A stretch of DNA of 42,039 bases from Thermoplasmata archaeon (GCA_046538435.1 JBKHIX010000002.1:1-42039), one strand, 5' to 3'. Shown: positions 128 through 26,433, numbered from the stretch's first letter. Numbers and translations: made by a program. The notes: generated by a model not told the origin, from the sequence alone.

Positions 128-952
128 ATGTCTATTTCAGATAATTCCGAAGGTATACAGATTTTGCCATTAACAGAAAGTAATGTAGACGACGTAATAT
201 GCTGCCCCGGGGGTCTGGAAGTTAAAAACAAAGACATGAAAGGAGACCTGTACCAAACACTCCTGTGGCGCAAAAGGATGCTTGACAACGGCTTGAGCGG
301 ATACATTTTCTACAAGGGTGAAACCCCTCACGGTTTCATAGAATACATGCCTGTAGAGTCGTCTCCATTCCCCATAGATGCCCCTAGTTCAGCAGTTTTG
401 ATGTGCTTTCACTGGGCGAGCACCGAAGAAGAACCTCATCTCGAGACTGAAAAAGAGATGATAGAGATGGTGATAGAAGATATCTATGAAAATTTCGACG
501 GATTGGTAGCCTTCGGTTGGGATAACCCAGAACATTTTCCCATTGATATGTTAAAAGAACTCGGTTTTGAAATTGTAGATTCTGAAAAATTAACAAAGTT
601 GATGTGGCTCCCTTTAAAAGATAAAGCATCTAGACCATATATCCTAGATACAGGAGTACAGGCTGAAGATCATTCTGACGAAGGAAAATTGAATATCATT
701 TCAACCTACTCCCATAGATGTCCCTACAGTATTCATAATGGAGTTAAGGTAAAAGAAGCGATAGAAAAAATAGACGATGATCGTATAGGATTCACCCAAC
801 ATACCATAGATAAGCAGGAAGATGCACTAGAATGGGCAGACGATCCGGGAAACTGGGAGTATTTGATGATAAATGGAGAAGAAGTCAATATCTTCGATAA
901 ATCAGCAGATGAGATAAAAGAAATTATAGAAGAGAAACTATCAGAACTCTGA
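128..952 (+). CDS. GNAT-like acetyltransferase with C-terminal YoaP-like domain
   Basis: 274-aa ORF. The N-terminal half looks like an acetyltransferase fold (GYIFYKGETPHGFIEYMP, LMCFHW). The C-terminal part carries a CPY-type motif (YSHRCPYSIHNGVKVKEAIE ... YLMINGEEV) resembling the YoaP-like domain. Assigned by eye only. Confidence 0.5.
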   Translation: MSISDNSEGIQILPLTESNVDDVICCPGGLEVKNKDMKGDLYQTLLWRKRMLDNGLSGYIFYKGETPHGFIEYMPVESSPFPIDAPSSAVLMCFHWASTEEEPHLETEKEMIEMVIEDIYENFDGLVAFGWDNPEHFPIDMLKELGFEIVDSEKLTKLMWLPLKDKASRPYILDTGVQAEDHSDEGKLNIISTYSHRCPYSIHNGVKVKEAIEKIDDDRIGFTQHTIDKQEDALEWADDPGNWEYLMINGEEVNIFDKSADEIKEIIEEKLSEL

Positions 953-953
953 T

Positions 954-1649
954 TCATTCCCTATAAACCATTGGTTCTGTATCACTGACTATCTCCCATC
1001 TACCTGAATATGAATCATATCTGTATTCACCTTTTACTACGACTGGAGTTTTCTTTAAAAAAGTTTCATTGCCTGCAGGACTCCACTCTTCTATATGGCA
1101 GTTTACCTGTTTGTATCCTCCACCTAGTGGACATATCTCCATATCATAACCGCCGTATGACTGGCCATCATTCACGACTTCACCTCTTACTTTTACGTTC
1201 ATACCTTCATACCATTCGGGATTTTCCAACAAAGAGGATATTTCAGTATAACTGTAGCAAGCTTTCTTCTCCAGTTCAATCCCATAGGACTCTTCCACAT
1301 TTAAAGTGTAATCACCTTCATACTCTTTAATGAAACCTCTGACAGAGATCACAGCACCCGGTTTTATCTCTTCTTTATTATCCACTTTCTCAAGTCGATC
1401 TTTTGCTACTTTTACATTAAGGATTTTACTGGACTCATTCTCTTTAAGCTCTATGTACATAGTATCTTCATAACTATAGCTTTCCGCCACTGTACCTGTT
1501 ACCATTACCTTCCTCCCAACAAAATTTTCATCGATTTCAGATATTCTCGAGTGCTTTACTCCTGAACTCGCAGTGAATAAAAACAACGAAGCTGTCCCTA
1601 AAATCGATACTATAACTGCGATGAAAAGCAACTTGTCTTTGGAAATCAT
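954..1649 (-). CDS. Membrane-anchored protein with two OB-fold (tRNA_anti-like) domains
   Basis: 231 aa. N-terminal MISKDK followed by a hydrophobic helix (LLFIAVIVSILGTASLFLFTA). Two repeats of the pattern VxVxGxV...Y...L.D typical of OB-fold modules (VMVTGTVAESYSYEDTMYIELKE; VKVRGEVVNDGQSYGGYDMEI). The start lies 3 nt after the orc1 stop. Confidence 0.5.
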   Translation of the reverse strand: MISKDKLLFIAVIVSILGTASLFLFTASSGVKHSRISEIDENFVGRKVMVTGTVAESYSYEDTMYIELKENESSKILNVKVAKDRLEKVDNKEEIKPGAVISVRGFIKEYEGDYTLNVEESYGIELEKKACYSYTEISSLLENPEWYEGMNVKVRGEVVNDGQSYGGYDMEICPLGGGYKQVNCHIEEWSPAGNETFLKKTPVVVKGEYRYDSYSGRWEIVSDTEPMVYRE

Positions 1650-1652
1650 CTA

Positions 1653-2816
1653 TTATCTACCCAATATCTCCAACAATTTATTTTCCATCCGCTCTGCAGG
1701 AATATCAGCGATAGATACCTTAGTCGTCCTTCCGGTTCCATCAGATACGGTCTTTGTCTCTATCAAACCGGCATTTGACAGTGACTTCAGGTATTTCCAG
1801 AATTGAGTGTGTCCCAGTTTTTTACAGTCGTACTCTTCACAGATTATCTTGTAGAGTTCCTCCACATCACCAGTAGTCGTATAGGATTGTTTCTTCAATT
1901 TCCTAGTTGCTGCTAATAGGATCACTCTTTCCTGTTGATTCAAATCTTTCAACCTGCTCTCTGTAACGTAAGGATCGACCTCAGCTTTAGCTCTTCTAAC
2001 ATCTTCAGACCTTATCTGATCCATTCTATCCATCTCTGCTGTTAAACTCGATTTCTCTAGTAGTTCTATACCAAATCTAGCATCCCCTTTTTTACCTGCA
2101 ATATCTGATAAAAATCTTATCTCCTCTTCCTCTATAGCACCCGGATATAGGGATATCTGTATCCTCTGTGACAATATATCATATAACTCATCCGAATTAT
2201 ATTTGGGAAATCTCACCCTGTTGCTTCTTTTAAAAGAACTCAACGCACTTTCTTCCAGTAGTTCGAAGGCGTTTTTCTGAGATATCAATACCAAAGATAC
2301 ATTACCAACTGAAGACAGTTCTTCTTCATTGAATCTGGTCAGCAGATAAACCAGCTCAGAACCGTCTTTTTGAATAAGGGCATCGACTTCGTCCAACACC
2401 ACTATCAGATGGGTTTTCTGATTCTTCAATTTATTCTTCAATATCTCCATCATCTCTCCGACAGAGAAACCTCTATCTGGAAATCCCTTATCAAAATGAT
2501 GAACTATCTTCCACATGGCAGAACTGTTGTTCTTCCTTCTCCTACAGTTCACAAATACATACTCTATATTCTTACCTTTATCTTTAGCCCAATCCTTAAA
2601 ATCCATACAGAAGCGCTTTGCAGTAGCTGTCTTACCAGTACCTACCTGACCGTGTAAGAAAACATTCTGAGATACGTCTGATTTCACCACTCCTCTAAAC
2701 AATCCGAAAAGATTTTTGATCTGATCATCACGGTTTGGAAGATCTTTAGGTACATAATCGAATGACAGCTTTTTCTGATCCTTTATTATATTTCCAGTAG
2801 TATCTCCAAAATCCAT
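1653..2816 (-). CDS. orc1: Orc1/Cdc6 replication initiator (AAA+ ATPase with winged-helix C-terminus)
   Basis: 387 aa. Walker A GQVGTGKT, Walker B IVVLDEVD, and the typical N-terminal LSFDYVPKDLPNRDDQI. A GGAG motif lies in the 10-nt gap upstream of the ATG. Confidence 0.95.
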   Translation of the reverse strand: MDFGDTTGNIIKDQKKLSFDYVPKDLPNRDDQIKNLFGLFRGVVKSDVSQNVFLHGQVGTGKTATAKRFCMDFKDWAKDKGKNIEYVFVNCRRRKNNSSAMWKIVHHFDKGFPDRGFSVGEMMEILKNKLKNQKTHLIVVLDEVDALIQKDGSELVYLLTRFNEEELSSVGNVSLVLISQKNAFELLEESALSSFKRSNRVRFPKYNSDELYDILSQRIQISLYPGAIEEEEIRFLSDIAGKKGDARFGIELLEKSSLTAEMDRMDQIRSEDVRRAKAEVDPYVTESRLKDLNQQERVILLAATRKLKKQSYTTTGDVEELYKIICEEYDCKKLGHTQFWKYLKSLSNAGLIETKTVSDGTGRTTKVSIADIPAERMENKLLEILGR

Positions 2817-2826
2817 ATTTCTCCGC

Positions 2827-4131
2827 TCATTGTTTTCTTAGGTCAGCCTCACAAAGTTCACAGAATTTTGTACTAGGGTCGTTCAGGTGATTACAGATTG
2901 GGCACTTTATTTTTTCCTTTTTCATCGAATTCTCCTCTTCCTGATCAATAGAGCTCTTACCTTCATCTTCATCCATCTTCTCAATCTCTTCAATAACACT
3001 AACTAAATCTTCCTCTTCCTGCATCTCTTCTGATGTACCTTCAGGAGTGATCACTATATCTTGAGGCTTCCCCTTCTTTTCCTCTTCTTTGTCTTCTGGT
3101 TCTGATATTTCATTGACTACGTCAACCACATTCTTCTCCTCAGTATCCCTTAATGGTTCAGGTATTTCTTCTTCATCCATCTCTTCTTTACCAAAAACTG
3201 GTTTTTCTAGTTGCTCCTCACCCTGACTGGACATTTTAACTTTTACTTCCTCTTCTTTCTTTTTCTCGGATCGGAGTTCCTCTTCAGCCTCTTTTTCTTC
3301 CTGCTCAATTTCCTCTTTAGTTCGGGGTAAAATAGAGTTCTTTATTGTAACATTTTTACCTGTAGAGAGAGAACCAACGTATTCCACACTCCCATTGACT
3401 GTGACTCCATCAGCTAAAACAACCTCACCACCTGATGAAACATCCTGAACAGTCGAATTCTTTTCAATTGTTAGATCTGTTTCACTCTCTATGTCGCCTG
3501 ATTCGATCTCCTCACCTACAGATATCTTTTTACCTTTTATCATTCCCTCGATCTTAACTTGATTTCCTAAAATGACATCTCCAGATTTAGATATTAGATC
3601 ACCCTGGATAACTACATCATCTCCAAAATTAATATCGCTCTCTGCATCGACTGAACCTTTGATATCAACCTCATTTCCTCCTTCTATCTTTCCTCTAGAT
3701 TCTACATCAGCAGTGACAATAGTGCTATGCTTGAATATTATATCGGTATCTGATCTTATGGCCAACTCACTAGAAACACCTGATCGTTTTTTCAATCTTT
3801 CTAACAAATCCTGATTTTCTTTATTCAATTCTTCTATCTCATCTTTTAATTCCTCAATTTCCTCTTCATAATCCTTGATAACTCCATCCTTTTCCTTCAC
3901 CATTTTACTCTCAACATCACCCTCTTCAAGCTTCTCATTCAATTCTTTTATCTTCTCATTTTTCTTTTCTAAGATACTTTTCTTTTTATCAAGAACTTTT
4001 CTATTCTCTTCCTCTAGCTTTTCTATTTCACCCTCTAACTTTGATTTCTCTTCTTTTAACTCTTCAACCTCATCACGATACTTTTTCAATTTCTTCCGAA
4101 TATACTCTTTCTTATCTTCCATAAGTGTCAC
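2827..4131 (-). CDS. Coiled-coil / bactofilin-like beta-helix / acidic linker / C-terminal zinc-ribbon protein
   Basis: 434 aa. Residues 1-115 are E/K-rich heptad-like sequence. Residues ~125-268 are repetitive G/D/V turns (VDIKGSVDAESDINFGDDVVIQGDLISKSGDVILGNQVKIEGMIKGKKISVG...) like the bactofilin (DUF583) domain. Residues ~270-405 are poly-acidic. The C-terminus is CPICNHLNDPSTKFCELCEADL. Confidence 0.6.
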   Translation of the reverse strand: MTLMEDKKEYIRKKLKKYRDEVEELKEEKSKLEGEIEKLEEENRKVLDKKKSILEKKNEKIKELNEKLEEGDVESKMVKEKDGVIKDYEEEIEELKDEIEELNKENQDLLERLKKRSGVSSELAIRSDTDIIFKHSTIVTADVESRGKIEGGNEVDIKGSVDAESDINFGDDVVIQGDLISKSGDVILGNQVKIEGMIKGKKISVGEEIESGDIESETDLTIEKNSTVQDVSSGGEVVLADGVTVNGSVEYVGSLSTGKNVTIKNSILPRTKEEIEQEEKEAEEELRSEKKKEEEVKVKMSSQGEEQLEKPVFGKEEMDEEEIPEPLRDTEEKNVVDVVNEISEPEDKEEEKKGKPQDIVITPEGTSEEMQEEEDLVSVIEEIEKMDEDEGKSSIDQEEENSMKKEKIKCPICNHLNDPSTKFCELCEADLRKQ

Positions 4132-4224
4132 TCTTGAAGGGCTCTTTTTATACTGTATGCTAATTTACATTATTTAAGATTTATCGGTATAAATATTTGT
4201 AAAAAAAGAAGTAAGTCTTAAACT

Positions 4225-4860
4225 CTAAAGGTTATCGATGATTCCTTTCATCCTTTCAACTTCAACTATACAAAACACATCCCCTTTTTTAGAAATTCTT
4301 TTGATGTTTTTGGCTATGACCTCTTCTCTATGGACCTCCAGCTCCTGATACCCCTTCAACTTGTTGATCACTTTATCCCATCTGAGAGCAAACTCTTTAG
4401 GAGTTTCTGCTTTGATCTTTTTCCTCGAAAGCGACTTTTCTCTAAATGCTTGTCTTAACCATTGAGTTCCAGTGACATATTTACAGTAAGCCATTGTATA
4501 ATGTTCTTCATCCATATCTAAAGATTCCAATCTTTTATTCTCATCTTCACAGAATTTTAAAAGAAACACGTATGAAGGAGGGGGCAAACTCACTTCTCCA
4601 AAGGTACTTAATCGCTCAGCGTAAATTTTTTCAACTTTATTTGGCTCAATCTCTATCTCATCATTCTCTTCGATGAACTCTTTTAAACCATTCAATTCTT
4701 CTTTAGATATCGGCAGGGCTGCAACTTCAAAATCTAAAGATTTCATATTATTTTTTACCTTTTCAGCTTCAGTGACAAGTCCTTTGACTATACCCATCAT
4801 GTAAATTTTAGAGCCGTCAATCTCAGCTTCGTACAAGTTAACTATCCCCCTTTCTCTCAT
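4225..4860 (-). CDS. Conserved hypothetical protein, possibly a degenerate TraB/GumN-like fold
   Basis: 211-aa ORF overlapping the upstream gene end by 23 nt. The layout IYMMGIVKGLVTEAEKVKNNMKSLDFEVAALPIS ... LESLDMDEEHY recalls TraB-family proteins but lacks the GTAHVS-type motif. The family call is weak. Confidence 0.3.
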   Translation of the reverse strand: MRERGIVNLYEAEIDGSKIYMMGIVKGLVTEAEKVKNNMKSLDFEVAALPISKEELNGLKEFIEENDEIEIEPNKVEKIYAERLSTFGEVSLPPPSYVFLLKFCEDENKRLESLDMDEEHYTMAYCKYVTGTQWLRQAFREKSLSRKKIKAETPKEFALRWDKVINKLKGYQELEVHREEVIAKNIKRISKKGDVFCIVEVERMKGIIDNL

Positions 4861-5788
4861 TTAGGATTTCTTTCATCTTTTCTCCTGTATCTATCTTGAA
4901 TAACTCTTTTTTCTCAATAACTGGTATCCCTTCAATATTTACTTGCGTATATCTTTTTTTTATAAAGAAGACTGAATCTTTTTCAGTTATCTTAGAAAGG
5001 TTAGAAACTATTTTCGCTTTATTCTTGATGTCTTCGTTCCCTTTGGATCCTATACCACTCAATAATATGGTATCATCATCACTTGTCACAGCTTCAAAAG
5101 GACACTTGCAGGTTGGAATTACCTCATAGCCAAAAGAATTCAATGACTCAAATACAAATCTACTCAATCCTTTGAATTTATTTATAGATTCTATATCCTT
5201 TTCATCTATCTCTGCTTTTTCCAAAGGATTCAGAGGCATTATTAAATCTCCTCCCAGGAACTCCTCGAGTCTTATAGCTACTTCTAAATCAGCCCCCATC
5301 CCATTTTCATACTTCTGTATCGACTTTCTTGAAACACCAGCTATCTCTGCTAATTTTTTCAAAGATATCTGTTTCTTCTTCCTTATTTTTTTAAATAAGT
5401 TAGAATCCAGCTGTACATAAAATCCTCCTGGCGCTGAGAAAACATAGGGTGGTATTCCTTCTATTACCATATCCTTCAGTGTTTCAAGGCTGATCAAAGG
5501 TATGCCTCTGCGTGTATAAACCACTCCTTTTTCCAACTCTCTCCGGCCCCCATTGACCGCTATAAACAGAGGTGAAGCATCCAGAGCACTAGCCAATCTC
5601 TTCAGTTCATTAGCGTTATCAATCCTAGAACTATCTGCATTCAATAGTACCCTTATTACTATCAATTCTTCGTCTTTACGTGCGACTAAATCGAAGCTTA
5701 TACCCCTGTCTCGAAAGGAATCTGTTATATAGAAACCGGACTTCGCAAGGGCTTCTCTAACCTCTTTTATCAACTGAAGCCTATTCAT
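4838..5788 (-). CDS. Archaeal putative HTH-type transcriptional regulator (XRE-type HTH flanked by two nuclease-fold-like domains)
   Basis: 316 aa. Central HTH KKKQISLKKLAEIAGVSRKSIQKYENG. The N-terminus (GFYITDSFRDRGISFDLVARKDEELIVIRV) is typical of the conserved ~320-aa archaeal regulator family. Confidence 0.8.
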   Translation of the reverse strand: MNRLQLIKEVREALAKSGFYITDSFRDRGISFDLVARKDEELIVIRVLLNADSSRIDNANELKRLASALDASPLFIAVNGGRRELEKGVVYTRRGIPLISLETLKDMVIEGIPPYVFSAPGGFYVQLDSNLFKKIRKKKQISLKKLAEIAGVSRKSIQKYENGMGADLEVAIRLEEFLGGDLIMPLNPLEKAEIDEKDIESINKFKGLSRFVFESLNSFGYEVIPTCKCPFEAVTSDDDTILLSGIGSKGNEDIKNKAKIVSNLSKITEKDSVFFIKKRYTQVNIEGIPVIEKKELFKIDTGEKMKEILNERKGDS

Positions 5789-5943
5789 CCATACCTAATT
5801 TAGTTTAATGTTCTATATAAGTATAACGGTAAATATATAAGTTAAAGTTGTTGATCGATTCTAAATTACAATCAAAGGTTTAGTAAAATATATATAGAAC
5901 CTCAATATTGAAAACTTCAACAAATGATTCAAAGGTGTAAATT

Positions 5944-7608
5944 ATGTTTGGAAACCAACCAATATTACTATTAAAAGAAGGAACGGAAAGAGAAAGAGGA
6001 GAAGACGCTCAGAAAAGAAACATCGCTGCTGCAAAGGCAATCGCTGACGCAGTAAGAACCACACTTGGTCCAAAAGGAATGGACAAGATGCTTGTGGACA
6101 GCTTAGGGGATGTTGTTATCACAAATGATGGTGCTACTATACTCAAAGAAATAGATATAGAGCATCCTGCAGCTAAGATGGTTGTTGAGGTTGCAGAGAG
6201 TCAAGATGATGAATGTGGGGATGGAACAACAACTGTTGTTGTTCTTGCGGGAGAGTTCTTGAAAGAAGCAGAGGACCTTATCGAACAAAATATTCATCCA
6301 AGCGTTATCGCTAAAGGATTCAGAGATGCAGCAGCCAAATCACAGGAAATTCTCCAGGAGAGCAAGATAGATATCGATATCAACGATGAAGAAAAGTTAA
6401 ATGAAATTGCAAAGACAGCCATGACTGGAAAGGCTATAGAAGGCAACAAAGATAAATTGGCTGAGATGGTTGTAGAAGCAGTAAGACATGTTGCAGAGGA
6501 AGAAGACGGATCATACATGGTCGATATCGACAACATAAAAGTAGAGAAGAAATCTGGAGCTAGTGTTGAAAGATCTGAGATGGTTAACGGTATCATACTC
6601 GATAAAGAAAGATTGAACGCAAGTATGCCCAAAGAGGTGAAGGACGCCAAGATAGCTCTTCTGAATTCAGCTCTTGAGATAAAAGAAACAGAAGTAGATG
6701 CTGAGATCGAGATAACAAATCCAGAACAGTTACAGCAGTTCATAGATGAAGAGGAAGCAAGCATCAAGAAGATGGTCGATAAAATCAAAGATGTTGGTGC
6801 TAACGTATTGCTGTGTCAGAAAGGAATAGATGACTTAGCTCAACATTATCTAGCAAAGAACGGAATATTGGCTATAAGAAGAGTCAAGAAGTCTGATATG
6901 AAGAAACTTGCAAAAGCAACAGGTGGAAACGTAGTAACAAATCTAAAAGACCTAGAAGAATCTGACTTAGGAAAAACGGGAATGGTACATGAAAAATTAG
7001 TCGGCGACAGCCACATGACCTTCGTAGAAGATGCTGCCAAAGGTAAATCTGTATCATTGTTGTTAAGAGGAGGAACAGAACATGTGGTAGATGAACTAGA
7101 AAGAGCGATTCACGACGCATTGAAAGTCTCTGCAGTTGCAATAGAAGACGGTGCAATACTACCTGGCGGGGGAGCAACAGAGATAGAATTGAGCAACAAG
7201 CTCAAAGATTACGCAGGAACTGTTAAAGGAAGAGAACAGTTGGCCATAGAAGCCTTCGCTGATGCTTTAACGATCATACCAAGAACATTAGCAGAAAACG
7301 CAGGAATGGATGGTATCGACGTCCTTATGGATCTCAACACAGCACATGAAAAAGACGGACTTAGAAATCAAGGTATAGAGATCATCAGTGGTGAAGTATC
7401 TGATATGGTAGACAGCAAAGTTGTCGAACCTTTCAGAGTTAAGAGCCAGGCAATACAGGCAGCTACTGAGGTAGCTAACATGATACTAAGAATCGACGAT
7501 GTCATAGCCTCCAAAGGTGGAGGCGGTGGAGAAGAAGCCGGTGGTCCACCAGGAGGACCTGGCGGAGGAATGCCAGGCGGCATGGGCGGAATGCCCGGTA
7601 TGATGTAA
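5944..7608 (+). CDS. ths: Thermosome subunit (group II chaperonin)
   Basis: 554 aa. Motifs [21 protein letters not shown] and GDGTTT, plus a C-terminal Gly/Met tail [18 protein letters not shown] lies 7 nt upstream of the ATG, and an AT-rich TATA-like block sits at about 5885-5896. Confidence 0.97.
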
Positions 7609-11145: not shown

Positions 11146-11455
11146 ATCGATAACTGGTGGTTACTTAAATGCACAGTTAGCTGGCATTATCCTTCTCTTG
11201 ATAGGACTGTATGGTTTGATTACTAACCGTAATCTGATAAAACAGGTCATTTCAATCAATGTTTTATCCACTGGTGTGTTCCTTTTCTTTACAAGCTTGG
11301 GACATGTAGCAGGGAAAAGTGCACCTCTTATAATCCACGACAGCATGGTCGATCCTCTTCCAGCCACGTTGATGTTGACCACATTGGTTATTGATGTTGC
11401 TGAGACAGCTTTTGCATTGGTCTTAATACTGAGGATGAAGGGTGAAAAAGAATGA
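11138..11455 (+). CDS. mrpC: Mrp/Mnh antiporter subunit C (NuoK-like, MbhG-like)
   Basis: 105 aa. TTG start preceded by GAGGTGG at 11124-11130. LIGLYGLITNRNLIKQVISINVL is typical of MnhC/NuoK. Confidence 0.8.
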   Translation: MIESITGGYLNAQLAGIILLLIGLYGLITNRNLIKQVISINVLSTGVFLFFTSLGHVAGKSAPLIIHDSMVDPLPATLMLTTLVIDVAETAFALVLILRMKGEKE

Positions 11456-12999
11456 TACCTCTCATCGTAACATTACCTCTGTCATTCGCATTTCTCGGCA
11501 TGCTCTCTACAGCTTTTAAAAAACTCGAAAGATTCATTGAAGTATTTTTCGTGTTAGGAATATTTTCACCATGGCCAATATTCATTCTCAATGTGAATGA
11601 TTATCCAATTGAAACCGTCATAGGTGGATGGTCTAGAATATCAGGGATAGAAGTGGGAATAGACAGCATCAATCATTTCTTGATACTTGCAACCCTGATC
11701 GTATTTTCAATGGTAGGGATATACTGCCTATCTTATTTCAGCAAAAATCCCGAAAAAAATGAACCGATAACAAATAAATCGATGTTTCCTCTCATACTTT
11801 TAGTGTATGGTGGACTACTAGGATGCTTCCTAACTAGAGATCTATTCAACTTTTATATTTATATGGAAATTGCGTCGGTATCATCGGTCATCATGGTATC
11901 ATGTTCAAATGAAGAAGGTTCAAAACAGGCAGCTTACAGGTATTTGATCCTTTTTTTCCTTTCTTCATTCATGTTTATTTTCTCAATTGGTATAATCTAT
12001 ACAAATACGGGAACTTTAAACTTCCATTTAATAAAAGAAAATATGGTGATGACAACAGAGATGAAAGTGGCTATATCGATGGCTTTTGTTTCTTTCATCA
12101 CTAAAGCAGGTATATTTCCAATCTATTTTTGGCTACCTGAAGCCCATTCAAAAGCAGAAACACCTATAAGTGCTATTTTATCCGGCTTAACAGTAAAAGT
12201 TCCTGTTTTTGGAATGGTGCTTTTCATGTTGTATATGGATATTGAATTCCTAACTCTACCACTTTTGATAATTGCTTTTTCATCGATTCTGTTTGGCGTT
12301 GTTTTAGCCATTCTTCAGAAAAATGTTAAGAAAATATTGGCATATTCGACTGTTTCACAAATGGGTTTTATTCTATTAGCTATCGCAACTTTGAACGCCG
12401 CCGCTGCGGTTCATTATGCTTTTGCACATGCGTTGTTTAAATCAGGACTGTTTCTGGGTATAGGAGTGTTGATTTCCAGGCATGGAACAAAAAATCTCGA
12501 CAGACTTTCCTGTAAAAGAGACAGTTTATTGATGTTATCGATTATTATCCTCACATTAGCCATTGGGGGTGTGTCACCACTAATAGGTGCCTTCGGAAAA
12601 AACGAAATTCTCTCAGAACTCTCAGGATTTGGAGTTTACTTATTTTATATAGGTTCCATAGGTACCCTGACCTACTTCATCAATCTAAATTACGGGCTGT
12701 TAAACTTAAAAAGCCTGGGAAAACAATTCCCTAATTTAGAAGGGATGGTAACCTTTATAACAGCAATATTGACAGTTGCTTTTGGTTTGTATTATTACCC
12801 AAAACTGAAATTAATGGATCTGGTTCTTATAGGAATTTCTTTCCTTACATTTGCCGTATTAAAATGGGTTAAAGTATTTGAATGGAAATCGCCAACATAC
12901 TTTTCAAAAGATGTAAAAGGTTTAGGTGGTGAGATAAACTTCTACACGTCAGTCTTCGTTTTAGTGAATATAATATTTCTAGTTTATTTTCTTTATTGA
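11452..12999 (+). CDS. mrpD: Mrp/Mnh antiporter subunit D, copy 1 (NuoN/M-like antiporter subunit, MbhH-like)
   Basis: 515 aa, polytopic. FWLPEAHSKAETPISAILSG and AYSTVSQMGF are typical of the Proton_antipo_M family. ATGA overlap with mrpC. Confidence 0.9.
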   Translation: MIPLIVTLPLSFAFLGMLSTAFKKLERFIEVFFVLGIFSPWPIFILNVNDYPIETVIGGWSRISGIEVGIDSINHFLILATLIVFSMVGIYCLSYFSKNPEKNEPITNKSMFPLILLVYGGLLGCFLTRDLFNFYIYMEIASVSSVIMVSCSNEEGSKQAAYRYLILFFLSSFMFIFSIGIIYTNTGTLNFHLIKENMVMTTEMKVAISMAFVSFITKAGIFPIYFWLPEAHSKAETPISAILSGLTVKVPVFGMVLFMLYMDIEFLTLPLLIIAFSSILFGVVLAILQKNVKKILAYSTVSQMGFILLAIATLNAAAAVHYAFAHALFKSGLFLGIGVLISRHGTKNLDRLSCKRDSLLMLSIIILTLAIGGVSPLIGAFGKNEILSELSGFGVYLFYIGSIGTLTYFINLNYGLLNLKSLGKQFPNLEGMVTFITAILTVAFGLYYYPKLKLMDLVLIGISFLTFAVLKWVKVFEWKSPTYFSKDVKGLGGEINFYTSVFVLVNIIFLVYFLY

Positions 13000-13107: not shown

Positions 13108-14658
13108 TTGATCCCTTTAATCGTAGTTTTGCCTTTATTCTTTGCCTTTACATGTATGCTTTCTATGGGCATTAGAAAGCTTAAAGGATATACTAAATTT
13201 TTTTTCCTGATGGGGATATTTTCACCATGGCCTATCTTCTTAATTAATGCTAGTGATTATCCTATAGAAACAGTCATAGGTGGATGGTCCAGAATATCAG
13301 GCGTAGAAGTAGGGATAAACAGCATTAACCTTTTCTTGATCCTTGCAGCCCTGATCGTATTTTCCATGGTGGGGGTATACAGTCTTTCATATTTCAGTAA
13401 AAATACTGATAATACTGATTTATTTAAAAACAGATCAATACTACCGCTTATTCTTCTAGCATATGGTGGGATACTCGGATGCTTCATGACTAGAGATCTT
13501 TTCAATTTCTTTATTTATACTGAGATCGCATCTTTATCCTCGATCATAATGGTTGCATGTTCAAGAGAAAAAGGTTCTAAGAAAGCTGCTTACAGATATT
13601 TGATAATGTTTCTCCTATCCACTTTCTTTTTTACTTTCTCCATTGGAATAATTTACCTCAATACTGGAACACTCAATTTTAACTTAATAAAGGAAAATAT
13701 GGTGATGACAACAGAAATGAAAGTGGCGATATCTATAGCCTTTGTTTCTTTTATCACCAAGGCTGGAATTTTTCCTATTTATTTCTGGCTTCCTGAGGCT
13801 TATTCTAAAGCTGATGCTCCGATCAGCGCTATATTAGCAGGTTTGGGTGAAAAAGTACCTATATTTGGGATGATCCTGTTTCTTTTGTATACCGATATCG
13901 AGTTTTTAACTCTTCCTTTGATGGTAGTGGCATTCTCTTCCATATTCTTTGGAATAATAATGGCCATTCTTCAGAAAAATGTTAAAAAGATACTCGCGTA
14001 CTCGACCATATCTCAACTTGGATTTATCTTATTGGCCATCGCAACTTTGAATGCTGCTGCAGCTGTTCATTATGCCTTTGCTCATGCTTTATTCAAGTCG
14101 GGATTATTCCTTGGCACAGGGATTTTGATTACTAGATATGGTACTAAAAATATTGATAGACTATCGTATAAAAACGATAAGATATTGATGCTGTCGATAA
14201 TCATATTGACCCTAGCTATAGGAGGTGTTTCACCATTTATAGGTGCTTTTGGAAAAAGTGGAATCCTATCTGAACTATCTGGTATTGAAGTTTATCTGTT
14301 TTATGCAGGTTCTATTGGTACCCTTACGTACTTTATTAATTTAAACTACAATCTGTTCTCTCTAAAGAATATTGTTAGTCCTCAAAAATATACTGTTGAA
14401 AAGGTTGTTACTTTTATAATATCTTTACTCACAATAGCCTTTGGTTTATATTATTATCCAAACTTGAAAATTATGGATGTTATACTTATCGGTACAGCCT
14501 TATCTATCTTTTACATATTTAAGCAGATAAATTTATTTGAAAGTAAATTACCAGAATATTTTTCTAGAGATTCAAGGGGGTTAGGTGTTGAGATAAACTT
14601 CTACACATCTATATTTCTTCTGATGAACATACTGTTCTTAATCTACAGTCTTTACTGA
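13108..14658 (+). CDS. mrpD: Mrp/Mnh antiporter subunit D, copy 2 (tandem paralogue)
   Basis: 516 aa. TTG start preceded by AGGTGA at 13096-13101. The N-terminus (M)IPLIV is identical to copy 1, which validates the TTG start. Long peptide blocks are shared with copy 1. Confidence 0.9.
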   Translation: MIPLIVVLPLFFAFTCMLSMGIRKLKGYTKFFFLMGIFSPWPIFLINASDYPIETVIGGWSRISGVEVGINSINLFLILAALIVFSMVGVYSLSYFSKNTDNTDLFKNRSILPLILLAYGGILGCFMTRDLFNFFIYTEIASLSSIIMVACSREKGSKKAAYRYLIMFLLSTFFFTFSIGIIYLNTGTLNFNLIKENMVMTTEMKVAISIAFVSFITKAGIFPIYFWLPEAYSKADAPISAILAGLGEKVPIFGMILFLLYTDIEFLTLPLMVVAFSSIFFGIIMAILQKNVKKILAYSTISQLGFILLAIATLNAAAAVHYAFAHALFKSGLFLGTGILITRYGTKNIDRLSYKNDKILMLSIIILTLAIGGVSPFIGAFGKSGILSELSGIEVYLFYAGSIGTLTYFINLNYNLFSLKNIVSPQKYTVEKVVTFIISLLTIAFGLYYYPNLKIMDVILIGTALSIFYIFKQINLFESKLPEYFSRDSRGLGVEINFYTSIFLLMNILFLIYSLY

Positions 14659-20069: not shown

Positions 20070-21830
20070 ATGCGAATAGCGGTAGTTCTAGAGGATAAAT
20101 GCCAGCCCAAAAGATGCAGTTACGAATGCATAAATTACTGTCCTAGAGTGAGGACCGGTGATGAGACCATAACTAAAACAGAGGGCGGTATAAAGATTTC
20201 AGAAGAATTATGTTCTGGCTGTGGTATATGTGTCGATAAGTGTCCATTCGATGCTATAAAGATAATAAATCTACCCGAAGAATTGGACACCGACTTAATA
20301 CATCAATTCGGGGAAAACAGTTTTCGTTTATACCGATTACCGGTTCCTGAAGAAGGGCAAGTAATTGGTCTTCTTGGTGCTAATGGGATAGGTAAAACAA
20401 CAGCTATCAGGATACTTTCAGGTGACATAAAACCTAACCTAGGAAAGTATGAAGAGGATGTATCTTTGGATCACGTTTTAGATAAGTATTCTGGAACTGC
20501 ATTAGGAGACTATTTCTCAAAATTAGATACGCAAAAATATGAAACTTCATTGAAACCACAATATGTGGATAAAATACCCGCTCATTTTTCGGGTAAGGTT
20601 GAGGACCTACTATCGGGCGTAGGCGATGATTACATGAGGTGGGTTGAAACACTTAATATTGAAAACACTCTAGATTCTAGTGTGAAAAATTTGTCTGGTG
20701 GTGAACTTCAAAGAGTTGCTATAGCTGCATCATCTACTAACGAGGCTGATATCTATTTCTACGACGAACCATCATCTTACTTAGATATAAAGCAGAGATT
20801 GAACGTAGCTAAAGCCATAAGAGAAAAAAGTAAGGATAGCCAGGTCATGGTCATCGAGCACGACCTAGCTGTTTTAGATTTCTTGGCAGATAATATCCAT
20901 ATCTTGTATGGTTCTAGAGGTGCTTATGGTGTTGTAACGCATCCCAAGGGTGTGCGAAAAGCGATAAACACTTACTTACACGGGTTCCTGCAGGAAGAAA
21001 ACATCAGATTTAGAAATGCAGATATCGAATTCGAAAAACATGCACCTAAAAAAGAATGGCATTCGAACCCTCTCATCGAATATGATAAACTGGTTAAGGA
21101 GTGGGATTCATTCAAACTGGAAACGGAGAAAGGAGAGATCCCAGAAGGTGAAGTAGTTGGAGTGGTGGGTCCAAATGCTACGGGTAAAACAACTTTCGTC
21201 AAGATGCTAGCCGATGTGATAGAACCAACAGAGGGAAATATCGAGAAGAAGATAAACGTAAGCTACAAACCCCAATACATCAAAGCTGACTATAGGGGCA
21301 GAGTTATGGACCTCTACAACACAGAAATTAGTGAAACGTTTCATTCAAGTTTCTTCGAGTCTGAGGTAATCAAACCTCTCGAGCTAGAAGAACTTTTGGA
21401 ACGTGAAGTGATGAACTTATCTGGCGGAGAACTCCAAAGAGCAGTTATCGCATTGTGTTTAGGAAGGAATGCGGATCTCTACCTTATCGATGAACCGAGT
21501 GCTTACCTTGATGCCTCTAGAAGGATGGACGCAGCTAAAGTCATTCGAAGATTCATGGAAAAAACTGACAAAGCTGGAATGATCGTTGATCACGATGTAT
21601 ATTTCATCGATTACGTATCAGATTTGATAATGAACTTCAACGGTATTCCAGGTGAACACGGTTATGGAAAGGGACCATTTGAGATGCGTGAAGGTATGAA
21701 CAATTTCCTAAAAGAACTTGAGATCACTTTCAGAAGGGATGCTGAAACCAACAGGCCCAGAGTTAATAAATTAAACTCTAGACTGGATAGAAAACAAAAA
21801 TCAGAGGGAGAGTACTACTACTCTAAATAG
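20070..21830 (+). CDS. abcE1: ABCE1 / RNase L inhibitor-type ribosome recycling ATPase
   Basis: 586 aa. N-terminal double 4Fe-4S Cys clusters (CQPKRCSYECINYCP; CSGCGICVDKCP). Two ABC domains (GANGIGKTT, GPNATGKTT, and LSGGELQR twice). Confidence 0.95.
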   Translation: MRIAVVLEDKCQPKRCSYECINYCPRVRTGDETITKTEGGIKISEELCSGCGICVDKCPFDAIKIINLPEELDTDLIHQFGENSFRLYRLPVPEEGQVIGLLGANGIGKTTAIRILSGDIKPNLGKYEEDVSLDHVLDKYSGTALGDYFSKLDTQKYETSLKPQYVDKIPAHFSGKVEDLLSGVGDDYMRWVETLNIENTLDSSVKNLSGGELQRVAIAASSTNEADIYFYDEPSSYLDIKQRLNVAKAIREKSKDSQVMVIEHDLAVLDFLADNIHILYGSRGAYGVVTHPKGVRKAINTYLHGFLQEENIRFRNADIEFEKHAPKKEWHSNPLIEYDKLVKEWDSFKLETEKGEIPEGEVVGVVGPNATGKTTFVKMLADVIEPTEGNIEKKINVSYKPQYIKADYRGRVMDLYNTEISETFHSSFFESEVIKPLELEELLEREVMNLSGGELQRAVIALCLGRNADLYLIDEPSAYLDASRRMDAAKVIRRFMEKTDKAGMIVDHDVYFIDYVSDLIMNFNGIPGEHGYGKGPFEMREGMNNFLKELEITFRRDAETNRPRVNKLNSRLDRKQKSEGEYYYSK

Positions 21831-22827
21831 TCGCCATATTTTCTATAGGTAATTTTTCTTCAATATCTTCTGCCATGAATTTGATACCGCGTTTTCTCTC
21901 TTCCGAAGGGACTAAATTTTCAACCAATATCTGACCATCTGGATATTCTGTCTGTTCGACTTTTATCTTTTTTTGTTTGTGTAAAAATAGGACTGAGACC
22001 ATAGCAGTTACAATATCTCCTATCCTGCTATCATGGATCATGTTAAAGGTTATAACGTTCTGTTCATAACAGCATATCCTGTCCCAAATCATGCCGATAT
22101 CATGGTACAAGTCCTCTTTGTGAGAACGGGTATCATAATTTTCCTCTCGATCCCTCATCTCCTGCTCTCTCTCTTCCTTCTTCTCTTTCCTGATTTTTTC
22201 CATCTTCTCTCTGTATTTAGCTTCCTTCTTCGCTTCTTCAAAAGCATCTACGAGCTGGATCAGTGAAACTGGGTTCTTTTCTTCTCTCCTTATCGCTTTA
22301 TCCAACGGTTGATTATCACTTTCCACCACTTCTTCCTGAAAATCAATATCTTCAGGTTCTTCATACAATTCATAATCATAAACATCCCAATCAGAAAAGA
22401 ATGTATCCTCTATAACTTCTTCTTCCTGTTCCTGACTTTGCTCAGCATCATAAAGGACTTCTTCACACTGCATCTTTAGGATAGACCAGGCCATGTTTAC
22501 AAGCTGACCCGCCACTAAAAAGTTGATATTTTCCTGATCTTTAGCTTCCTCAAGATACATCTTGGTAAATGATATTAAATCTATATCCCATGGATCCATC
22601 TTTTCATCTATTACAAGCTTGAAAACTGAAGCGATAGCACATTCAAAAGGATCGTTAGATATCTGGTAACCATCGTCATCCATATTATTGATCATGGTGA
22701 TATATTCGTCTATTCTCTCTCCTGAGCGTTCTTCATCGATCAAAGATTTATGAAAAATGAGGTGGTTGATAACTTCATCTGTCGATTCACCTACCTCAAC
22801 GATCGGTTTCTCTACTTCACAGACCAT
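21823..22827 (-). CDS. scpA: Segregation and condensation protein A (kleisin ScpA), expanded charged linker
   Basis: 334 aa. The N-terminal KMDPWDIDLISFTKMYL...FLVAGQLVNMAWSILKMQ is typical of ScpA. The ATG directly abuts the smc stop (TAGATG). Confidence 0.8.
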   Translation of the reverse strand: MVCEVEKPIVEVGESTDEVINHLIFHKSLIDEERSGERIDEYITMINNMDDDGYQISNDPFECAIASVFKLVIDEKMDPWDIDLISFTKMYLEEAKDQENINFLVAGQLVNMAWSILKMQCEEVLYDAEQSQEQEEEVIEDTFFSDWDVYDYELYEEPEDIDFQEEVVESDNQPLDKAIRREEKNPVSLIQLVDAFEEAKKEAKYREKMEKIRKEKKEEREQEMRDREENYDTRSHKEDLYHDIGMIWDRICCYEQNVITFNMIHDSRIGDIVTAMVSVLFLHKQKKIKVEQTEYPDGQILVENLVPSEERKRGIKFMAEDIEEKLPIENMATI

Positions 22828-25800
22828 CTACTGCACCTCCGTTGTCAATTTACTGACCTCTGAAAATTCAGGAATATCTTTTTCTTTACTATCTCCTATA
22901 TTCACCTTCATTATCACGTCAGAGATACCGTTTTCATGTATTGTTACACCTATGATATGATCCGATTTCTTCAATGTGACCTTTCTCAAAGAGATTTGGA
23001 TGAACTGAGCAGATTCAGAATTCCTCTTTATCATCCCAGCTACGTTTTCAGCGTTTATACCGTCTAGATTCTGATCTATCTCATCCAGCAAGTAAAACGG
23101 CGATGGGTCATACATCTGTATAGAGAATATGAAGGCCATGCTGACAAGGCTCTTCTCTCCGCCAGATAATGCATCGATCCTGTGCACTTTCTTTCCCGGA
23201 GGTCTAGCTTTAATTATCAATCCACCTTCGAATGGTTTTTCCTCATTTTGGAGTTCAAGGTGTGCTTCACCACCACCTGATAAATTGTTGTACACTTTCT
23301 GGAAGTTTTTATCGATTTCTTTCTTTACCTTCATCAGACCTTCTTTCTTCTTCACATCCATCTCGTCGATCAATTTATTCAGTTCTTCTCTCCTGTTTTC
23401 CAGCTCAGTGTACTCATCTTTGAGCTTCTCCATTCTTTCTTTCTTCTTCTTGTAATCCTCTAGAGCCCGCATATTTACCGGCTGAAGATCTTCCATTCTA
23501 TTCTCACATTTCCTAATCGTGTGTTTCAGTTCTTTCATCTTTGGTAATTCTTCGCCCGAATAGCCCAAATCATCATCTAAATCGTTTTTAAGCTCTTCTA
23601 AACTCTCTCTTTCATTCTTCAACTTTTGTTTAAGACTTAGGATATACTTCTTCTTGGACTCGATCTCAGTCTCGATATTATCTATTTTATGCTTGATATC
23701 CATCCTTTCTTCTTTCTTTTCGTCTAAACTCTGTCTTAAATCCTCCAACTCCTCATCCATCGAGTCCTGCTCTTCCTTAAGATCTTCTAGTTCATCCCTC
23801 TTCTCCTCGATCTTAGATTTGAGTTTTTTGATCTTGGATTCTTTCTGCTTGTTTTCTTCTTTCAATTTTTTCTTCTCTTCTTCAAGATCATCGATATTAT
23901 CGTTTATGATGCCTTTTTCATTCTTCTTTTTTTCCAACTCAGAATCGAGCTTGTTGATCCTTTTGTCGATCTCAACTTCTTTATCCTTTAACTTAGTTAA
24001 TTTTGATGATAATTCTTCTGGACTTATCTTCTTTATCTTTTCAGATATCTCATGTCTCCTATCTTTCAGCTGTTCAATCTCATTCTCTATATATTGTACT
24101 GAATGATTCAACTGTTCTAAAGTATCTTCCAACTCACTCTTCTCATTCTTCTTATCCTCTAGATCTGACTTTTTTTTCTTTATCTTCTTGTTTAACCGTT
24201 CAACTCTAGATTCTAATTCCGATTGTTCCTGGGGACTTCCTTCATTCTGCAGTTCCTGCATTTCGTCCTGTATCTCCTGCATCTCGTTTTCTACTTCATT
24301 CAGCTGGTCAGACACTCGCTCTAGATTATCTCTAGTCATCTGTAATTCTTTACTGACTCTGTCTAATTTACCTCTATCCGGTGCATTGAAACTCATCATG
24401 TTCTTTCTAAGAGTTCCACCTTTCATAGCCCCGCTTTTTTCTATCTGCTCACCTTCTAGAGTCACCATACGGACTCCTCCCATGTACTGTCTTGCAGAGT
24501 CGATATCTTTCATAACTACTGTATCACCGAATACATACCAGAATACATTCTCATATTTCTCATCATAATCTACTAATTCTAGAGCGAAATCCACAGCCTC
24601 TTCTTTCTTCACAACTCTGAGCGCTTTACCTCTCGGTCGTCCAGTTCTCATCTTGTTTAAAGGTAAGAAAGTAGCTCTACCGGATTTATTCTTCTTCAAC
24701 AACTTTATGGCTTCAGAAGCAACACTGTCATCTTCTACAACTATGGACTGCATCCTTCCGCCTGCTGCCACAGACAAGGCTGTCTCATACTGATCATCAA
24801 CATCTGCTAACTCAGCTATAGTTCCGTGAACACCTGATATTCCACCCTTATCACGTGCTTCTAAGACAGTCGTAACAGCCCTAGTGTAACCTTTCTTGAC
24901 GGATTTAGCTGCCTCCTCTTCCGCTTTAAGTTGATTATACTTTCTTGTTAATCTGTCCACTCTATCTTCTAAGTCACTTTTATCTTTCCTCAAACTTTTC
25001 TCTTTTTGCTTTTTAGAATGGAACTTTTCTTTCAACTCTTTGAGCCTTTCATCATGCTGTTCATTATCTTTCTTGATCTCTTTAAGGTCCCATTTTGCTT
25101 CTTTCTTTTCAAATTCCAGACCTTCTAATTCTTCTTCCAATTCAGATATCTCTTCTACTAAACGATCGATATTGTCCTCTTTTCTATCCAATTCTACTTT
25201 CTTTTCGGACAAAGAATCGGTTTTTTTATCTATCTTTTTCTTGACTTTAAGACCTTCTTTTCTAAGATCAGTTATCCTCTCATCAGAATCAGACTGCTTC
25301 TCCTGGATCTCTTCTATCTCTTCACTGACTTCTTCTACTTCTTCCTTTTTTTCAGCCTTTTCTTCCTCTATCTCTCTGATCCTTGATTTTACCTCAGATA
25401 ATTTTTCACGTTTATTCTGAAGTTCATCGATTACTAACTCCCTTCTTTCTTTATTCTTTTCGATAGTATATTCAGCATCTTCTTTTCTATCTTCACTTCT
25501 TCCTATCTCCAATCTTAGATCATTTATCTTACTCTGGAGCTCTTTACTTTTTCCTCCACCCTGTACCTTTAGTTCGTCCTTCAGATCACTTATCTGATCG
25601 AGGAGTTCCTGAACCCTATCTTTCAATTCTTCTTTTTTCTCTTTTTTATTTTCTATCTTTTGCTTGGTCTCTTCTATATCGTCTTGGATAGAAGCGATAT
25701 TGTTTTGAGTGTTATTGATCATCTTCCAGGTCTTCTTTTCCTTAGCCTCAGACACTTTGTCAGACAGTTCCTGGTACTTCAAAGCTTTCTTTCTATCGTC

Positions 25801-26433
25801 TTCTAATTCATCTACTTGAGTCTTTATCTCATCTAGAAGGATACTTATCCTCTCAAGATCGTCATTGACCTGCTCTTTTTTCTCCTCAGCCTCTTCGATC
25901 TCGCTATCGTATTCACTTATTCCGGATATATCATCCAATATCCTCCTCCTCTCAAGATCACTCATCTCAACGATTTTAGATATATCTCCCTGCTGGACTA
26001 AGTTGTAACCATCTGCTGATATACGTGCATGAGATAATAATCTTTGAAATTCTGATAACTTAGATGATCTTCCATTTATATAAAAATAAGAGTTGTATCC
26101 CTGCTGATTATCTGATCGTTTTATTTTTCTAGTAAAAGTTACAGTATCAGAATCTTGTGGTATAGCTCTATCCTCATTTTCAAATATAAGACTTACTTTA
26201 CATCTATCTGCAGGCTTCCCTTCTTTTCCACCATTAAAAATCAAATCTGTCAGACGGCCTGCTCTTATCTCCTTCGAACTTTTAGGACCGAGAACAAAAA
26301 GTATCGCATCACCAATATTTGACTTACCAGATCCATTTGGTCCAGTGATATTGGTATAGCCTTCCTTAAAAGGTATCTCCATATTTTTCCCAAAAGATTT
26401 GAAGTTCTCCATCCTGATCTTCTTTAAATACAA
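22828..26433 (-). CDS. smc: SMC chromosome condensation ATPase
   Basis: 1201 aa. TTG start with AGGAGGA at 26441-26447. FKSF, Walker A GPNGSGKSN, long E/K coiled coils, a hinge around GVHGTIAEL, signature LSGGEKS and Walker B YLLDEID. Confidence 0.97.
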   Translation of the reverse strand: MYLKKIRMENFKSFGKNMEIPFKEGYTNITGPNGSGKSNIGDAILFVLGPKSSKEIRAGRLTDLIFNGGKEGKPADRCKVSLIFENEDRAIPQDSDTVTFTRKIKRSDNQQGYNSYFYINGRSSKLSEFQRLLSHARISADGYNLVQQGDISKIVEMSDLERRRILDDISGISEYDSEIEEAEEKKEQVNDDLERISILLDEIKTQVDELEDDRKKALKYQELSDKVSEAKEKKTWKMINNTQNNIASIQDDIEETKQKIENKKEKKEELKDRVQELLDQISDLKDELKVQGGGKSKELQSKINDLRLEIGRSEDRKEDAEYTIEKNKERRELVIDELQNKREKLSEVKSRIREIEEEKAEKKEEVEEVSEEIEEIQEKQSDSDERITDLRKEGLKVKKKIDKKTDSLSEKKVELDRKEDNIDRLVEEISELEEELEGLEFEKKEAKWDLKEIKKDNEQHDERLKELKEKFHSKKQKEKSLRKDKSDLEDRVDRLTRKYNQLKAEEEAAKSVKKGYTRAVTTVLEARDKGGISGVHGTIAELADVDDQYETALSVAAGGRMQSIVVEDDSVASEAIKLLKKNKSGRATFLPLNKMRTGRPRGKALRVVKKEEAVDFALELVDYDEKYENVFWYVFGDTVVMKDIDSARQYMGGVRMVTLEGEQIEKSGAMKGGTLRKNMMSFNAPDRGKLDRVSKELQMTRDNLERVSDQLNEVENEMQEIQDEMQELQNEGSPQEQSELESRVERLNKKIKKKKSDLEDKKNEKSELEDTLEQLNHSVQYIENEIEQLKDRRHEISEKIKKISPEELSSKLTKLKDKEVEIDKRINKLDSELEKKKNEKGIINDNIDDLEEEKKKLKEENKQKESKIKKLKSKIEEKRDELEDLKEEQDSMDEELEDLRQSLDEKKEERMDIKHKIDNIETEIESKKKYILSLKQKLKNERESLEELKNDLDDDLGYSGEELPKMKELKHTIRKCENRMEDLQPVNMRALEDYKKKKERMEKLKDEYTELENRREELNKLIDEMDVKKKEGLMKVKKEIDKNFQKVYNNLSGGGEAHLELQNEEKPFEGGLIIKARPPGKKVHRIDALSGGEKSLVSMAFIFSIQMYDPSPFYLLDEIDQNLDGINAENVAGMIKRNSESAQFIQISLRKVTLKKSDHIIGVTIHENGISDVIMKVNIGDSKEKDIPEFSEVSKLTTEVQ

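Follow-up and report, generated by a model that had tools for sequence, protein, structure and literature searches.

A bactofilin-like zinc-ribbon protein encoded beside orc1 in uncultured Thermoplasmata archaea

Why should a gene for a scaffold-type protein be packed against the gene for a replication initiator? The question is raised by a 42,039-nt stretch of chromosomal DNA from an uncultured Thermoplasmata archaeon (GCA_046538435.1, JBKHIX010000002.1; hereafter the window), in which open reading frame (ORF) calling places three co-directional genes back to back on the minus strand. They encode a bactofilin-like protein that we designate Bac, the initiator Orc1/Cdc6, and a membrane-anchored protein with two OB folds (OB protein). 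To our knowledge, how origins are positioned, segregated and spatially regulated in Euryarchaeota is largely unknown. An earlier interpretation made from the DNA alone (the sequence-only reading) had not recognised this arrangement as a described one, and full-text literature searches likewise returned no paper linking a bactofilin with Orc1 or with Thermoplasmata in this sense. What is new here is the domain architecture of Bac and its conserved genomic association with orc1, not a new class of protein.

The orc1 cluster, its conservation and its transcription

The cluster and its upstream neighbours comprise the following features:

4838–5788, minus strand: helix-turn-helix (HTH) regulator gene, PDDEXK_19 plus HTH_3, PRK04140 family (NCBIfam NF003162, 300.3 bits against a cutoff of 263)
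4225–4860, minus strand: gene for a 211-aa protein, called as an ORF, with a 23-nt overlap with the HTH gene
4168–4185, minus strand: candidate promoter-like motif of the BRE/TATA type, GATAAATCTTAAATAATG, in the gap of 93 nt ahead of Bac
2827–4131, minus strand: Bac, 434 aa, with coiled coil, bactofilin-like beta-helix, acidic linker and zinc ribbon
3778–4131, minus strand: Bac residues 1–118, N-terminal basic motif and heptad coiled coil, from heptad occupancy and conservation
3325–3762, minus strand: Bac residues 124–269, beta-solenoid, from an AlphaFold2 (AF2) model and a Pfam Bactofilin match
2905–3324, minus strand: Bac acidic linker, 140 aa, from composition
2851–2904, minus strand: Bac C-terminal zinc ribbon, CPIC-x10-CELC, from the Cys pattern
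2821–2824, minus strand: Shine–Dalgarno (SD)-like GGAG in the gap between Bac and orc1, 4 nt before the orc1 ATG
1653–2816, minus strand: Orc1/Cdc6, 387 aa (TIGR02928, E=5e-83), with AAA+, Cdc6_lid and winged helix
954–1649, minus strand: OB protein, 231 aa, with a transmembrane (TM) helix at residues 7–31 (nt 1557–1631) and OB folds at about residues 32–128 and 137–222

The tight packing described in the sequence-only reading proved exact in every detail checked, including the GGAG ahead of the orc1 ATG. On the coding strand, the Bac and orc1 genes are joined as TGA-GCGGAGAAAT-ATG, with a 10-nt gap (2817–2826), and orc1 and the OB gene as TAA-TAG-ATG, with a 3-nt gap (1650–1652). The identity given to the middle gene was also right: judged by its domains, the product is a genuine Orc1/Cdc6 initiator, matching TIGR02928 with 279 bits (cutoff 181.3), Cdc6_lid with 67.4 bits and the winged-helix family Cdc6_C with 66.4 bits, in addition to its AAA+ domain. 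Missed in that reading were the two co-directional genes upstream. The HTH gene precedes the cluster in most related loci; the 211-aa protein, for which we found no Pfam or NCBIfam family match, has orthologs of 50–77% identity, always with the HTH gene on one side and Bac or orc1 on the other. The five genes for the HTH regulator, the 211-aa protein, Bac, Orc1 and the OB protein form a conserved chromosomal block in a clade of uncultured Thermoplasmata, the three packed genes being its core.

To follow this block among relatives, neighbourhood searches were anchored on the OB protein, Bac homologs and Orc1, and a metagenome scan with an Orc1 alignment yielded 80 loci. The nearest relatives are Thermoplasmata metagenome-assembled genomes with Orc1 91–93% identical to that of the window, and sediment metagenomes of soda lakes supplied most of the related contigs. 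Arrangements and gaps were as follows:

Window: HTH, protein of about 214 aa, Bac, Orc1, OB; Bac to orc1 10 nt, orc1 to OB 3 nt
L002 (lineage of the window and L001): arrangement as in the window; Bac to orc1 10 nt, orc1 to OB 3 nt
L007–9: arrangement as in the window; Bac to orc1 24 nt, orc1 to OB −4 nt
L010–12: arrangement as in the window; Bac to orc1 62 nt, orc1 to OB 14 nt
L013: arrangement as in the window; Bac to orc1 16 nt, orc1 to OB 7 nt
L018–20: arrangement as in the window; Bac to orc1 19 nt, orc1 to OB 5 nt

Across these five gap-measured lineages, identity to the window proteins was 66–91% for Orc1, 38–78% for Bac and 36–69% for the OB protein. Because the packing recurs in independent lineages, it is not a one-off. 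The sequence-only reading had made conservation in relatives a test of its claim, and the triad of Bac, Orc1 and OB passes it: apart from one subclade, each of the nine lineages has the triad (Orc1 58–91% identical, Bac 38–49%). Among loci with Orc1 58–70% identical it occurs in L033, L035, L036, L038 and L039–41, the last of which lack the upstream genes for the HTH regulator and the 214-aa protein, indicating that the triad persists on its own. In a distance-based, midpoint-rooted neighbour-joining tree of Orc1, Bac-positive loci occupied the basal and several internal branches and the Bac-lacking loci formed one nested subclade, including L004, which speaks for a triad that was ancestral and was lost mainly once.

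The orc1–OB pair occurs more widely than the triad. In the more distant locus L003 (Orc1 47% identical) the pair is retained with a 4-nt gap, and upstream lies an intergenic region of about 1 kb with one small zinc-ribbon ORF, beyond which a divergent gene encodes a giant secreted protein. An rRNA operon upstream of orc1 in L003 was considered and rejected, the sequence in question being that giant gene. Every clade locus with downstream DNA carries the OB gene downstream of orc1, and no other feature of the locus is as well conserved as this strict pairing.

Bac, orc1 and the OB gene are likely co-transcribed from a conserved promoter upstream of Bac, as judged from signals in the DNA. The motif GATAAATCTTAAATAATG, a putative promoter, or close variants of it, occurs upstream of Bac in L002, L007, L010 and L013. 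Gaps of 10–24 nt between Bac and orc1 leave no room for a promoter and carry SD-like GGAG or GAGG, with the GGAG type also preceding orc1 in L007 and L018. In lineages lacking Bac, a TATA-like TTTTATATTA is present in the 82-nt gap ahead of orc1. If Bac is co-transcribed with orc1, the scaffold would be made whenever the initiator is made.

Architecture and family relationship of Bac

The sequence-only reading had divided Bac into an E/K-rich coiled coil, a bactofilin-type beta-helix, a poly-acidic linker and a terminal CxxC...CxxC zinc ribbon, and the first, third and fourth of these parts are borne out. The coiled coil (residues 1–118; 39 D/E, 32 K/R) shows hydrophobic occupancy of a/d positions of 6–7 out of 8 in two segments, and in library scans it weakly matched the coiled coils of SMC, DivIC and TolA. 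It opens with a basic motif, YIRKKLKKYR, which is kept in all orthologs; we found no amphipathic membrane-targeting peptide at the Bac N-terminus, which has this motif and the 118-aa coiled coil instead. The linker (residues 270–409) contains 54 D/E in 140 aa, and its length differs 7-fold across the 10 orc1-adjacent orthologs (shortest about 25 aa, longest about 170 aa); such strongly variable length is typical of disordered spacers, and the linker is probably one.

The zinc ribbon spans C410 to C427 when numbered from the GTG at 4131, or C407 to C424 from the ATG at 4122. In the latter numbering, C407, P408, C410, C421, C424 and A426 are invariant in 10 of 10 orthologs. These orthologs show little or no variation in the N-terminal motif, the heptad leucines, many Gly, Ser and Tyr of the helix and the four Cys (CPxC...CxxCxA). 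The window protein matched Zn_ribbon_3 and DZR weakly, and its homolog P0014 matched Zn_Ribbon_1 with 26.8 bits (cutoff 25). A natural deletion variant exists in L037, where the ortholog upstream of orc1 (4497–4949) has 150 aa, comprising the basic motif, the coiled coil and the zinc ribbon, without beta-helix or acidic linker. In L009 (778–2094), the first 35 or so residues of the Bac ortholog are replaced by a stretch that, by eye, resembles the SRP54/FtsY N-domain; this is probably an assembly chimera and not a true fusion.

For the repeat region, AF2 with a 16-sequence alignment predicted an uninterrupted beta-solenoid over residues 124–269 (pLDDT 94.7, pTM 0.88), with about eight windings and strand triplets every 16–19 residues. 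The three-faced beta-helix with windings of about 17–18 residues that defines bactofilins is thus seen in the model, with about eight windings against the canonical six. When 1.84 billion representatives were searched exhaustively with phmmer, the beta-helix region recovered 84 relatives; this region was used because the full-length 434-aa query was dominated by low-complexity words and gave one match. Pfam Bactofilin (PF04519) matched 67 of the 74 homologs scanned, with a best E-value of 1.8e-17, and 16 of 16 close members. It is also the top match of the window Bac, covering profile positions 5–97 of 98. The closest representative with the same architecture, P0014, scored 35.3 bits, above the gathering score of 27.9 bits. 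The claim of a bactofilin-type beta-helix at residues ~125–268 therefore stands for the beta-helix and, at the level of the family, for the bactofilin relationship; the structure and profile checks on the repeat region gave a beta-helix, with the Bactofilin match passing the cutoff in P0014 and falling short of it in the window protein itself. From these profile and model comparisons, we regard Bac as a divergent member of a bactofilin-like family with a non-canonical architecture, an assignment in which right-handedness and polymerisation play no part.

Two other solenoid families come into question. That the region is a left-handed beta-helix (LbH) of the hexapeptide acyltransferase type was suggested by the A1 profile, which matched the LbH domain of GlmU among PDB sequences with E=2.6e-4 (bactofilin 6RIA, 0.13), and by LbH_EIF2B, found in 30 of the 74 homologs. 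We consider this very improbable: the windings have 16–19 residues and not a strict 18; GlmU superposed very poorly in Foldseek (TMq 0.12–0.22, root-mean-square deviation ~12 Å), against a TMq of 0.47 for the right-handed helix of tapirin; and there is no nucleotidyl- or acyl-transferase domain and no trimer context. Moreover, P0045, a homolog of the bactofilin family whose domain looks more canonical, matched LpxD and TtBac equally well, so that the LbH signal appears to be periodicity noise. The second family is FapA/DUF342 (PF03961), which likewise combines a beta-solenoid with a coiled coil and scored comparably weakly on the window domain (3.5e-5, against 2.5e-5 for Bactofilin); however, the coiled coil is C-terminal in FapA and N-terminal in Bac, and FapA matched only 4 of the 74 homologs. 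Nothing was recovered with A1 in a profile search of the word index (E<=1e-5), and neither did Foldseek with the beta-helix model against the viral models of BFVD yield a significant one.

Canonical bactofilins form a right-handed, three-faced beta-helix of six windings flanked by disordered tails, commonly but not universally with an N-terminal membrane-targeting sequence. Like C. crescentus BacA and T. thermophilus TtBac, Bac would combine a three-faced helix having windings of about 17–18 residues with disordered tails; it differs in having about eight windings, in a coiled coil that replaces the membrane-targeting peptide, and in the added acidic linker and zinc ribbon. Bactofilin domains are widespread in archaea (bioRxiv 10.1101/617639; PMC11459167), and the halofilins HalA and HalB of Haloferax volcanii are, like Bac, divergent relatives seen mainly by profile or structure methods. 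In HalA, a helical hairpin joins two bactofilin domains head to head; HalB, a membrane protein, carries its five-winding domain outside the cell; and both function in cell shape (PMC11459167); the same paper makes no mention of a coiled coil, zinc ribbon, orc1, replication or Thermoplasma.

The OB protein, Bac paralogs and the DUF835 link

As the sequence-only reading had it, the third protein combines one TM helix with two OB modules. The AF2 model (pLDDT 81) shows a single N-terminal hydrophobic helix (residues 7–31) followed by two beta-barrels, and Foldseek with this model retrieved tandem-OB DNA binders, namely Teb1 AB (4.5e-8) and then HIN-200, P. abyssi RPA and POT1, all with probability 1.00. 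The predicted structure is therefore that of a tandem OB fold with the topology of a nucleic-acid binder. No Pfam family matched at its cutoff, tRNA_anti-codon reaching 24.9 bits of the required 27, and tRNA_anti-like and DUF4131 (the ComEC N-terminal domain) matched weakly. The protein thus resembles both membrane-anchored or secreted OB proteins (ComEC DUF4131, tRNA_anti-like PF12869), in its TM helix plus OB and in these weak matches, and tandem-OB DNA binders such as RPA, Teb1 and HIN-200, in its fold; unlike these, it is a small dedicated protein and the constant 3' neighbour of orc1.

The warning in the sequence-only reading that the OB domains may lie outside the cell is weakly in line with the flanking charges. 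In seven of eight lineages the N-terminal side of the TM helix has a net charge of +1 to +2 and the C-terminal side of 0 to −6, which by the charge-difference rule places the OB domains outside (N-in/C-out). Counts of K+R alone are near balance (14 against 11) and the hydrophobic segment is long; an outward orientation is, on these grounds, somewhat more probable than the opposite one. Convergent on the OB gene is a gene for a 274-aa protein (window 128–952), without a Pfam or NCBIfam match, which has the same position in L001 and L002.

The orc1 association is specific to one orthologous group of Bac proteins, because the paralogs P0015 (helix-hairpin-helix (HhH) tail), P0027 (other zinc ribbon) and P0018 (other tail) are not located beside orc1. 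The idea that HhH-tailed paralogs also flank orc1 was rejected, since their loci are not next to it. In seven homologs, a (HhH)2-type DNA-binding module takes the place of the zinc ribbon, or both are present (P0017); by analogy, these HhH-tailed homologs support the idea that the Bac tail may serve as an adaptor for DNA or a partner. In L015 (8173–8862), and also in L016 and L017, a 229-aa Hexapep/GMPPB_C-like beta-helix protein is encoded 53 nt after an HhH-tailed Bac paralog and may be a second beta-helix partner.

A further link came from loci of a more distant, Thermoplasmata-like sister clade (L044–L104; Orc1 45–49% identical), mostly from freshwater and wetland sediments, which contain neither Bac nor OB. 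In about 47 of the approximately 50 loci with enough sequence, a DUF835 gene for some 190 aa lies directly 3' of orc1 on the same strand, its product matching PF05763 with 108.8 bits (cutoff 33.1); in L048, for instance, orc1 occupies 4944–6152 and DUF835 6238–6816, with ribosomal L1/L10/L12 genes upstream. This orc1–DUF835 pair seems to be undescribed. DUF835 is an inactivated KaiC-like domain (Galperin et al., PMC5847659). The beta-helix search also recovered fusions of DUF835, a coiled coil and Bactofilin, with both domains above their cutoffs in P0024 and P0042. Because the orc1 neighbour DUF835 is elsewhere fused to a Bac module, there is a hint of the Rosetta-stone type that Bac-family and Orc1-associated proteins may act together. 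Two further contigs carry an isoleucyl-tRNA synthetase with extra C-terminal HHH_5 and DUF835 domains (L105 1–963, L106 1–1044) and a DUF835–coiled-coil–bactofilin gene about 4 kb from ftsZ.

What Bac may do beside Orc1

Taking as shown how Bac is built, its kinship with bactofilins, its retention next to orc1 and the link through fusions, one can sketch a model of assembly, partners and role. Bac would dimerise via its coiled coil; the dimers would assemble, possibly end to end through the beta-helix like bactofilins, into a higher-order scaffold; and the tethered zinc ribbon would act as an adaptor touching DNA or Orc1, whereby replication initiation or origin DNA would be coupled to a fixed cellular structure. 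Bac may, then, be a scaffold or adaptor expressed with Orc1 that ties the initiator or origin DNA to cell structure, a reading that we hold tentatively and with rather less than even confidence. The closest analogy for such coupling is in Myxococcus xanthus, where a scaffold of BacNOP and PadC positions ParABS (Lin et al. 2017, as cited in PMC12284271). The proposed likeness is that of a bactofilin-type scaffold joined to origin-proximal machinery via an adaptor; that system is bacterial, however, PadC is a separate protein and the partners are ParA and ParB and not Orc1.

Several observations weigh against this reading. The long acidic tail of Bac speaks against simple DNA coating, and matches to the origin recognition box (ORB) consensus in the window are at chance level (5, with 5.3 expected), without a cluster near orc1. 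The window Bac scored 21.5 bits at full length and 24.9 bits as a domain alone, below the Pfam Bactofilin gathering score. PDB sequence and profile searches cannot separate bactofilins from left-handed hexapeptide helices, and Foldseek of the beta-helix model against the PDB gave nothing at E<=1e-3 and no bactofilin (6RIA/2N3D) among the 50 matches listed, a result that says little on bactofilin membership and argues only against an LbH. Close paralogs of Bac are found in unrelated contexts. Ten loci lack Bac and retain the order HTH, 214-aa protein, Orc1, OB (L026–32, L034, L043, and L101, which ends within orc1); with this loss in a subclade and the missing helix in L037, the beta-helix, and even the Bac gene, are dispensable beside orc1. 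Finally, the 62-nt gap between Bac and orc1 in L010 begins with a TATA-like TTTTATATAT, so that orc1 may have a promoter of its own in that lineage.

Could the adjacency reflect synteny with no direct link? Bac would then serve the cytoskeleton, cell shape or division in general, its gene would sit among housekeeping genes related to growth, and the conserved order would come from common descent and co-expression only. Synteny extends over the whole region, which is of the housekeeping kind (thermosome, dTMP kinase, Kae1, malic enzyme); one subclade lost Bac with orc1–OB unchanged; paralogs built in the same way have neighbours such as an MscS channel, TBP and methyltransferases; and the characterised archaeal bactofilin relatives work in cell shape (PMC11459167). 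We judge this somewhat less likely than a direct link. Gaps of 10–24 nt with SD-like motifs point to co-translation units, the adjacency is kept in L039–41 without the HTH and 211-aa genes, and inertia explains poorly both the orc1–DUF835 pairs and the DUF835–Bac fusions.

Bac may also not polymerise at all. In that case it would be a dimer held by the coiled coil, with the beta-helix as a stiff spacer, much as in FapA/DUF342 or the C-terminal domain of MinC. The work would fall to the zinc ribbon, the coiled coil and the basic N-terminal motif, which together would make up a regulator or adaptor of Orc1 or of another partner. Precisely these three elements are what the L037 ortholog keeps; the FapA and Bactofilin scores on the window domain are close; the coiled coil lies directly against that face of the helix, the N-terminal one, by which bactofilins stack head to head; and Bac has no N-terminal membrane-targeting sequence. 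Yet Bactofilin is the dominant match among the homologs (67 of 74, against 4 for FapA) and the beta-helix is well conserved in all other lineages, with near-invariant Gly, Ser and Tyr positions. We rate the spacer reading as improbable.

An origin-positioning or segregation role for the block would be speculation. Orc1 is its sole DNA-replication partner, and no genes for ParA, ParB or PadC were found on scanning the block and 26 large window ORFs, five large ORFs being left out. With no ParA/ParB-type gene found among the ORFs scanned and no ORB cluster next to orc1, the block is not placed with bactofilin–ParABS-type positioning systems. No repeat cluster near orc1 was found in candidate intergenic regions of relatives, and Rfam gave no match in the window or L003. 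Several relatives have a non-coding stretch of 600–850 nt ahead of kae1/tsaD, some genes past OB (L002 9578–10326, L007 5530–6172, L013 10934–11780); it is a candidate origin region, in which clear ORB repeats were not found, and it would lie just beyond the left end of the window. The boldest possibility is a single apparatus, made up of Bac, Orc1 and the TM–tandem-OB protein, that anchors the origin to the envelope in archaea without ParABS and SegAB, the latter being mostly limited to Crenarchaeota and some Euryarchaeota. The zinc ribbon of a Bac polymer would grip Orc1 or origin DNA, the OB protein, if cytoplasmic, would tether DNA to the membrane, and DUF835 would be the alternative module in sister lineages. 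We regard this apparatus as a long shot.

The remaining window genes are of the housekeeping kind, including thermosome, dTMP kinase, Mrp antiporter, SMC, aIF2 and S-adenosylmethionine synthetase. A 37-nt inverted repeat (43–79 and 5889–5925; 70% complementary, intergenic) with a TTTTCAATATTGA-like core flanks the whole cluster, one of its two copies lying in the divergent promoter region of the thermosome and HTH genes; the core recurs at 20648–20672 and 34821–34845, and the repeat may be a regulator-binding site. The SMC gene (22828–26433, 1201 aa), 19 kb from the orc1 block, is followed by a gene for 334 aa (21823–22827) without a Pfam match, which may encode a kleisin. On the minus strand, a 1611-aa ORF (32385–37220) with five tandem domain repeats of about 255 nt (32590–33689) probably encodes a surface protein. 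Two Mrp antiporter subunit genes (11452–12999 and 13108–14658) are paralogous, sharing a 300-nt repeat of 74% identity.

A scaffold-type gene kept with the initiator gene across a clade is a concrete candidate for a link between the start of replication and cell architecture. Those archaeal relatives of bactofilins that have been characterised, the halofilins, are connected in the literature searched with cell shape alone, and the DUF835 fusions and neighbourhoods strengthen the candidate. The idea is testable with recombinant proteins although the organisms are uncultured. If the link should prove merely syntenic, the locus would still provide a new domain architecture in the bactofilin family and a conserved membrane OB protein associated with Orc1.

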